Shown: positions 13,120 through 13,763 of the stretch, one piece after another | How the letters are laid out: the number at the start of each line of letters is the position of its first letter | Numbering within the stretch: position 1 is the first letter of the stretch | Assembly (NCBI GenBank): GCA_017536685.1 | Contig: JAFXGW010000025.1 | Coordinates: forward strand, 2,816 to 66,815 | Origin: Clostridia bacterium | Lineage (GTDB): Bacteria; Bacillota; Clostridia; TANB77; CAG-508 | Direction of reading: 5' to 3' | DNA length: 64,000 bases | Translations under genes and position numbers: made by a program | Notes under the pieces: model-generated | The model's input: the letters and a program-made list of their open reading frames with translations, nothing else | What the model was told of the DNA's origin: nothing | Database searches by the model: none

Positions 13120-13149
13120 TTGACATAATATTCTTTAGCATGTTATAAT
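13120..13149 (+). promoter_or_regulatory. Sigma-A promoter of ispF
   Basis: TTGACA-N18-TATAAT with TGn extended -10. Confidence 0.8.
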
Positions 13150-13174
13150 TATCTTTGTAACCTATACTTAGAAA

Positions 13175-13722
13175 GGGATTGGCAGACTTTTTCAAGTGTA
13201 AGGAGGTTATTTAATGAGAGAAATTTTTGTCTCTTCTATTGGCCAAGACAGTCACAGAGTCGCTTCTGAAAATACAAAACCACTGATTCTTGGTGGTATT
13301 GAATTCCAGAATGCAGGCTTCAGTTTGGAGGCCAACAGTGATGGTGATGTTGTACTTCACGCAATCACCAACGCAATTTCCGGAATCACCGGAGTAAACA
13401 TCCTGGGCAAAATCGCAGATGATATGTGTAAACGCGGAATCACCAATAGTGAAGCATATCTGAAAACAGCCCTTGAATATATGGATCAGAATACCAAAAT
13501 TCTTCATGTATCTGTTTCCATTGAAGCCAAACGCCCTAAATTTTCGCCGCATATCACGGAAATGTGTTACAAAATTGCCAGTTTGCTCAATATTCCAGGC
13601 TCTTCTGTTTGTATCACCGCCACAACAGGCGAAGGTCTTACTGAATTTGGTAAAGGCAATGGTATTTTCGTAACCGTAATCATGAGCTTTTCTAAAATAA
13701 TATAAAGCAGTCTGCCAATCCC
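13175..13722. repeat. Perfect 14-bp inverted repeat bracketing ispF (13175-13188 / 13709-13722)
   Basis: gggattggcagact ... agtctgccaatccc. Confidence 0.9.
13214..13705 (+). CDS. ispF: 2-C-methyl-D-erythritol 2,4-cyclodiphosphate synthase
   Basis: IGQDSH, NSDGDVVLHA, EAKRPK, ATTGEGL motifs; RBS aggagg; GC-richer than flanks. Confidence 0.9.
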   Translation: MREIFVSSIGQDSHRVASENTKPLILGGIEFQNAGFSLEANSDGDVVLHAITNAISGITGVNILGKIADDMCKRGITNSEAYLKTALEYMDQNTKILHVSVSIEAKRPKFSPHITEMCYKIASLLNIPGSSVCITATTGEGLTEFGKGNGIFVTVIMSFSKII

Positions 13723-13735
13723 CAAAAAGCAAATT

Positions 13736-13763
13736 AGAGGACACCCAAATTCGGGAGTCCTCT
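13736..13763. terminator. Hairpin between ispF and recD2
   Basis: agaggac-acccaaattcggga-gtcctct. Confidence 0.7.

Follow-up and report, generated by a model that had tools for sequence, protein, structure and literature searches.

The window analysed here is a stretch of 64,000 nucleotides from the genome assembly (G000, 1.64 Mb) of a Clostridia bacterium. In it an ispF gene lies between the spoIIAA-spoIIAB-sigF operon and recD2, both of which are on the opposite strand. The features of the locus are as follows.

12940-13863, strand not applicable: lineage-specific insert running from the spoIIAA promoter region to the recD2 stop and made up of the ispF cassette and AT-rich filler
13120-13149, plus strand: sigma-70-type promoter, with 12 of 12 consensus positions matched
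13175-13188, plus strand: IR-L, the 5'-UTR arm of a putative helix, GGGATTGGCAGACT, 12 nt 5' of the Shine-Dalgarno sequence and predicted to pair with IR-R at a probability of at least 0.98
13200-13206, plus strand: Shine-Dalgarno sequence AAGGAGG, 7 nt 5' of the ATG, outside the putative helix and unpaired in the centroid fold
13214-13705, plus strand: ispF, 2-C-methyl-D-erythritol 2,4-cyclodiphosphate synthase, 163 aa (TIGR00151, PF02542)
13709-13722, plus strand: IR-R, the 3'-UTR arm of the putative helix, AGTCTGCCAATCCC, placed 3 nt past the stop and followed by an A-rich spacer
13737-13762, plus strand: terminator-like hairpin GAGGACACCC-aaattc-GGGAGTCCTC, with a local fold of -16.3 kcal/mol

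The promoter is composed of TTGACA (13120-13125), an 18-nt spacer with a TG extension and TATAAT (13144-13149), and transcription is predicted to start at about 13156-13159. The ispF stop codon TAA occupies 13703-13705. Directly 3' of the hairpin there is an interrupted U tract, TTGGCTATTATTT, giving a terminator-like element at 13737-13775. A simple terminator scan made no call at 13737-13775, and the terminator is imperfect.

The product of the gene scores 132.5 bits against TIGR00151 (cut-off 116.45) and 116.3 bits against PF02542 (cut-off 26.7, E = 2e-33), and the residues D12, H14 and H49 are invariant in the protein alignment. We take these residues to be the equivalents of D8, H10 and H42 of E. 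coli IspF, the metal-binding Asp and His. By these profile and residue matches the protein is an IspF/YgbB family member (MEcPP synthase), with its activity predicted accordingly from sequence, and ispF gives the only YgbB match in the assembly. The gene had been described in the earlier note as richer in G+C than its flanks, and the measured values agree: the GC content is 0.42 for ispF (0.40-0.43 along the gene) versus 0.18-0.27 for the flanks (about 25% in the neighbouring genes), and GC3 is 0.36 for ispF versus 0.11-0.14 for spoIIAA, spoIIAB and recD2.

It is noted that a stop-free antisense ORF of 177 aa (13211-13744, minus strand) spans the whole of ispF. In the other cassettes described below, the antisense ORF has 33-120 aa and is not conserved. 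The 177-aa frame is therefore considered to be a shadow ORF of a GC-rich gene, and it was ruled out as the cargo of an inverted state on the same ground.

The repeat search reproduced the coordinates and the complementarity of a perfect 14-nt inverted repeat, which the earlier note had placed around ispF and inside its own transcription unit. The two arms are 100% complementary, with a spacing of 520 nt. IR-L sits between the promoter and the Shine-Dalgarno sequence, and IR-R between the TAA stop and the terminator hairpin. A search for other copies of the 14-mer flanking further genes, as had been suggested, found it in the assembly at the two ispF arms only. An Rfam search of 12900-13900 gave no family at E <= 1. 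From shuffling, the expected number of matches in the window is 0.06. A genome-wide null model was also constructed, in which the upstream 95 nt of each ORF were compared with the downstream 63 nt of another ORF; it yields about 1.8 ORFs per genome with exact complementarity of at least 14 nt, nearly all of them AT-rich. The length of the repeat alone is thus unexceptional. Genome-wide, complementarity between the upstream and downstream regions of the same gene showed no enrichment over this null, and the idea that all genes of the genome might be bracketed in this way was dropped. The ispF repeat exceeds chance by virtue of its G+C content (8 of 14 positions), the constant place it occupies, and the fact that relatives have conserved it with covariation.

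Two other bracketed genes were observed elsewhere in the assembly, outside the window. The first (C38:85167-85496) encodes a small membrane protein of 109 aa, presumably DUF1294-like by its appearance, and lies within a longer, imperfect inverted repeat that spans about 55 nt and has a 17-nt exact core, TTCTAATCCTCAAATTA, at -76 and +28. The second (C32:36512-37018) encodes a secreted-looking protein of 168 aa and has a 14-nt arm, TTTTAGTACAGAGA, at -62. The complement of this arm is found 10 nt past the stop, directly before a terminator hairpin, in the same architecture as in ispF.

The conserved promoter region of spoIIAA, with its 0A box, ends in ...ttcgaca at about 12940, and the sequence beyond is lineage-specific. 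Among the 13 genus relatives in which both spoIIAA and recD2 were found, the gap between the two genes is gene-free and 118-304 bp long in nine; it holds unrelated genes in the other four. Because the gap is usually gene-free and the sequence past ttcgaca is lineage-specific, ispF can be regarded as an insertion in a variable intergenic spot. The closest relative, G005, has a gap of 1265 bp with a radical-SAM-like ORF, and in three other relatives the gap holds small, unrelated ORFs that have promoters and terminators of their own. The spoIIAA-recD2 space (12833-13863 in the window; compared loci L015, L016, L026 and L030) is a hotspot whose content varies within the genus.

Relatives of the protein were sought in a collection of 5.8 billion proteins, and the DNA of the metagenome contigs was then compared. 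The closest proteins are 67-73% identical to this IspF and are encoded on metagenome contigs. Seven further versions of the cassette, with one architecture, were obtained in this way (P0002-P0006, P0010 and P0011, at loci L129, L045, L130, L138, L046-48, L141-142 and L135). This ispF together with L045, L046, L129, L130, L135, L138 and L141 makes up the set of eight cassettes referred to hereafter. An eighth further version, P0007 (L139/L140), has the promoter and IR-L in common with the others, and both of its contigs stop inside IR-R. It should be mentioned that L139 and L140, which come from two samples, end at the identical base of IR-R (...ctctgcca) after passing through IR-L; this shared end could reflect strain heterogeneity 3' of the cassette or an assembly effect.

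The order of elements in the cassettes is promoter, variable leader with IR-L, Shine-Dalgarno sequence, ispF, IR-R, A-rich spacer and terminator hairpin. In an alignment of nine cassette 5' regions (A3), the -35 element TTGACATAA and TG-N-TATAAT are invariant throughout; conservation is confined to the -35 element, the extended -10 element and IR-L, and the leader around them varies. At the 3' end, the other cassettes have clearer terminators, composed of a hairpin and a T-run, at the equivalent position, with differing stem sequences (alignment A4). Complementary arms are present in all eight cassettes, about 40 nt 5' of the start codon and 3' of the stop codon, and the inverted repeat is thereby conserved in seven relatives of the locus in the window. 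IR-R begins 3-8 nt past the stop in seven of the eight and about 22 nt past it in L141.

The GC content of ispF in the cassettes is 0.35-0.45, and that of the hosts about 0.25-0.30. The cassettes are found in at least three genomic contexts: between spoIIAA and recD2, where the SpoIIAA of the hosts is 56-82% identical to that of this genome; beside CrtO and GH77; and beside a SAICAR-synthase-like neighbour, with one further context unassigned. Since the contexts differ, the cassette must have moved or been exchanged with its promoter and terminator along with the gene. Judged from these comparisons of sequence, ispF is a self-contained, horizontally acquired expression cassette. The ispF of the window (13214-13705) contains no CGG codon in frame, its arginines being encoded by AGA and CGC; among nine cassette genes inspected, a single in-frame CGG was seen, in L130 (700-1197).

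Ordinary ispF loci were used as controls. No flanking repeat was found in the best 80 loci from GTDB species-representative genomes, among which there was no further cassette, in about 80 metagenome loci, or in L131, L225 and L228. These loci, at identities of up to 69%, have a host-like GC content, and the longest exact match between their upstream and downstream regions is at most 11 nt and AT-rich. A protein-based scan of metagenome contigs returned ordinary ispF genes only, at identities of at most 65% and without the repeat.

Imperfect, AT-rich direct repeats (13031-13105 and 13768-13836; 71-88% identical, spacing 731-737) flank the cassette in the window. No comparable flanking repeats were seen in the other cassettes. 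They are probably a low-complexity resemblance or a local duplication; as a target duplication they are a weak candidate, being present at the ispF locus of this genome only, and this was rejected. The statement of the earlier note that no clear target-site duplication is visible holds across the cassettes, which have no consistent flanking direct repeats.

The arm sequences of the seven relatives are given below.

L045: IR-L AGGATTGGCAGAC, IR-R GTCTGCCAATCCT
L046: IR-L AGGGATTGGCAGA, IR-R TCTGCCAATCCCT
L129: IR-L AGAGATTGGCAGACT, IR-R AGTCTGCCAGTCTCT
L130 and L138: IR-L GGGATTGGCAG, IR-R CTGCCAATCCC
L135: IR-L GGGATTGGTAG, IR-R CTGCCAATCCC
L141: IR-L AGGATTAGTATAA, IR-R TTATACTAATCCT; the most AT-ameliorated copy, with a gene GC of 0.345

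For the eight cassettes, the two arm regions were aligned without gaps and joined by an artificial linker (alignment A5). An inner core of 11 bp is paired in 88 of 88 cells, and double-sided changes are found in six of the 14 pairs. In L045 and L129 alike, G:C is replaced by A:U, and L141 has changed five of 13 positions in both arms with complementarity retained. The covariation score is 0.25, compared with 0.126 ± 0.023 for shuffled alignments, none of 500 of which reach the observed value. Pairing is 88% in register and drops to 26-47% after displacement of the 3' partner by 1-3 columns. These counts come from eight sequences with five of the double changes in one lineage (L141), so they correspond to only some three to four independent events. 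Single-sided changes of the core number only two (L129 and L135), and both produce U·G in the sense RNA and C·A on the antisense strand. This asymmetry suggests that selection acts on the sense RNA. As the core GGATTGGCAG is retained by seven of the eight cassettes, a sequence-specific reader, either a protein or a recombinase, is also conceivable.

The helix is present in both the minimum free energy (MFE) and the centroid fold of the predicted 617-nt transcript (13159-13775). The 11 core pairs recur in the MFE structures of all eight cassette transcripts, with mean pair probabilities of 0.98-1.00, and the energy of the arm duplex ranges from -15.7 to -26.1 kcal/mol. With the predicted helix formed, about 16 nt at the 5' end remain single-stranded and the Shine-Dalgarno sequence uncovered, so that a direct regulatory logic is not readable from the sequence. 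The whole predicted transcript (13159-13775) folds at -176 kcal/mol, versus -144 ± 6 kcal/mol for dinucleotide shuffles (z = -5.0), an excess stability larger than the contribution of the helix itself.

A stem between the 5' and 3' ends that closes the mRNA into a loop had been the third of three readings offered by the earlier note, and it gains support from the covariation, from the U·G pairs of the sense strand and from the occurrence of the helix in all MFE folds. [quoted passage not shown] On this reading one transcript would carry both arms, and they would pair in vivo. The DNA has a consensus promoter on the 5' side and terminator hairpins on the 3' side, both conserved across the cassettes. 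Several other explanations of the repeat have been weighed against this one.

The repeats could be a relic of mobilisation, namely functionless terminal inverted repeats or recombination sites of an element that moved ispF. The foreign GC and GC3 of the gene, its position in a variable intergenic hotspot and the several contexts of the cassette are all as expected from such a history. A gene mobilised between terminal inverted repeats had also been proposed for this locus, and lateral acquisition of the gene is upheld. The second half of that proposal does not stand: the repeats are not the termini of the mobile unit, because the promoter and the terminator outside them were transferred as well, the 14-mer is not a dispersed sequence, and the cassettes share no consistent target duplication. 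From one context to another, what is conserved runs from the -35 box to the terminator, with the repeats internal. A transposase was sought and not found. The genome has a single pair of the repeat, and extra copies are likewise lacking in 400 genomes of the family, where the motif gave one chance match inside a coding sequence; the plasmid and phage collections gave no match. Functionless arms would also decay independently, yet these arms covary. We therefore regard a mere relic as unlikely.

In another explanation, the two words are paired binding sites for a protein, on DNA or RNA, and a regulator bound at both of them would work as a roadblock or through looping of the DNA. The strong conservation of the core next to a variable leader would suit such sites, and the position of IR-L, about +16 to +30 relative to the predicted start, is one that is typical of repressors. 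However, the word is not palindromic, and a protein site needs no pairing of the kind kept by L141 when it swapped five positions in both arms. The word is also unique to this pair in the genome, implying a regulator with a single target, and no regulator gene travels with the cassette. Paired protein sites are accordingly very unlikely in our judgement.

An invertible whole-gene switch had been the first reading of the repeat. A recombinase would flip the 548-bp segment, and the fixed promoter would read either ispF or the antisense strand. As in invertons, a segment next to a promoter is flanked by short inverted repeats; here they enclose the gene with the promoter outside. The core kept in seven of eight cassettes is what a recombinase site would show, and the ends of L139 and L140 inside IR-R, in different samples, might be taken as a trace of inversion. 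Both of these contigs, however, cross IR-L unbroken, and the orientation is promoter-to-gene in 14 of 14 contigs (from about 14 samples), whereas an inverton has both orientations in the population. Profile searches of the assembly, which is 85.5% complete, gave no match to the serine recombinase family PF00239 and two to the tyrosine recombinase family PF00589, on contigs C2 and C33 and not on the ispF contig (C16); the earlier note, too, had seen no recombinase. Unlike invertons, the cassette has its promoter outside the bracketed segment and a repeat that drifts with compensation: the five positions changed in both arms of L141 are hard to fit with a conserved recombinase site, and mismatches solely of the U·G type are suggestive of RNA. 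Conservation of the long antisense ORF is lacking, and shutting off what is possibly the sole copy of a biosynthetic gene makes little sense. With a single orientation, no serine recombinase found in the assembly and a conserved unit that reaches past the repeats, the switch appears highly improbable.

Chance complementarity in one genome can be dismissed, although exact 14-nt matches between upstream and downstream regions arise one to two times per genome under the null, since a G+C-rich repeat in a genome of 27% GC that recurs, covarying, at the same position in eight diverged cassettes already refutes it.

The preferred reading, a helix between the two UTRs of one mRNA, belongs to a class of bacterial RNA structure of which examples are known, though rare. 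To our knowledge, the verified cases of such pairing in bacteria are few, the usual examples being hbs, icaR and the type I toxin mRNAs. In the B. subtilis hbs mRNA, a 14-nt tract of the leader is fully complementary to a tract just 5' of the terminator, with a pairing energy of -19 kcal/mol (PMC5737220). The pairing was proved in vivo by compensatory mutations, and it restricts cleavage by RNase Y in the leader (C2) as well as a 3' decay pathway (PMC5737220; Braun, Durand and Condon 2017). The predicted ispF unit would resemble hbs in being a monocistronic Firmicute mRNA in which a tract of about 14 nt upstream of the Shine-Dalgarno sequence is complementary to a tract between stop and terminator, with the Shine-Dalgarno sequence left free, and the duplex energies are similar (-16 to -26 kcal/mol for the ispF cassettes). 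In hbs both the pairing and its effect were shown by mutation, whereas in ispF it is natural covariation alone that speaks for pairing maintained by compensatory changes. The leaders also differ, that of hbs having about 180-210 nt with two hairpins and that of ispF about 55 nt and no hairpin. There is no relationship between the sequences, the genes are different, and the ispF element rides on a laterally transferred cassette.

In Staphylococcus aureus icaR, translation is blocked by pairing of a 3'-UTR motif with the Shine-Dalgarno region, and the pairing also creates a substrate for RNase III (PMC3868564). The ispF mRNA would share with icaR the intramolecular pairing of the two UTRs of one Firmicute mRNA. 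Unlike icaR, it has its Shine-Dalgarno sequence 12 nt outside the helix. A duplex of 11-15 bp is short for RNase III. In the hok family of type I toxin mRNAs, the tac/fbi pairing of the ends locks an inactive fold with the Shine-Dalgarno sequence sequestered, and 3' processing removes the clamp (PMC9841398). A long-distance helix between the 5' and 3' ends would likewise close the full-length ispF mRNA; there is, however, no evident alternative partner to sequester the Shine-Dalgarno sequence and no evident antisense RNA, and the cargo is a housekeeping enzyme, not a toxin. [quoted passage not shown]

The mechanism we propose for the ispF helix is an end-clamp of the mRNA. The cassette consists of a consensus promoter, a predicted leader of about 55 nt, a strong Shine-Dalgarno sequence, a GC-rich ispF, a short 3' UTR and a terminator, inserted in opposite orientation between spoIIAA and recD2 in the metagenome-assembled genome of an AT-rich, sporulating gut Clostridia bacterium. 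Once transcription is complete, 11-15 nt of the leader (IR-L) would pair with the tract between stop and terminator (IR-R), closing the coding region of about 520 nt into a loop and bringing the two UTRs together. Such a clamp would shield the single-stranded, AT-rich UTRs from an endonuclease of the RNase Y type and set the lifetime of the mRNA. By analogy with hbs, this shielding, and through it control of mRNA lifetime, is the most likely effect of the clamp. Because IR-R begins a few nt past the stop codon in most cassettes, a ribosome that terminates there should open the helix for a short time, and the state of the clamp would then be coupled to translation, a link that we put forward as possible and by inference only.

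The distribution of the methylerythritol phosphate (MEP) pathway in the genus provides the setting for the cassette. Those other members of the genus in which ispF occurs have a different, low-GC version of it, 59-65% identical and 154-158 aa long, in an ackA-ispF-ispE-ispD arrangement. A survey of 16 genomes (G000 and 15 relatives of the same genus) found the MEP genes to be patchy, with ispH in 14, ispG in nine and a YgbB/ispF match in five. Several near-complete genomes, among them G008 (96%), G025 (100%), G029 (99%) and G032 (99%), have ispG and mostly ispH, with ispF undetected, and are possible cases of a 'missing ispF'. G000, at 85.5% completeness, has both ispG (C2:2116-3138) and ispH. 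In a tblastn search of the G000 assembly with the genus ackA, ispE and ispD (from L009), none was found. Since its contig ends 2 kb from ispG, a native ackA-ispF-ispE-ispD block may sit in an assembly gap, and it is uncertain that the cassette ispF is the sole copy in G000. An ackA-ispE-ispD locus without ispF, which would have indicated displacement of a native ispF, was sought and not found, all three genes being absent from the assembly.

A wider version of the end-clamp seems unlikely: a portable module, in the order promoter, arm, gene, arm and terminator, that would protect both ends of the mRNA of a foreign, compositionally alien gene from host RNases and so make the gene expressible in AT-rich hosts of any kind. 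If true, such a module would have accompanied ispF in its spread through gut Clostridia that have lost their native ispF. Less likely still is an undescribed system of cassette capture with the arms as its DNA sites. What is notable in the ispF locus is the natural covariation behind the pairing of the 5' and 3' UTRs and an element that travels with a mobile ispF cassette, and the anatomy is compact and simple enough that a few constructs would suffice for a test in a laboratory Firmicute. An ispF cassette that moves laterally in a lineage with a patchy MEP pathway bears on the loss and regain of essential steps in reduced gut genomes.
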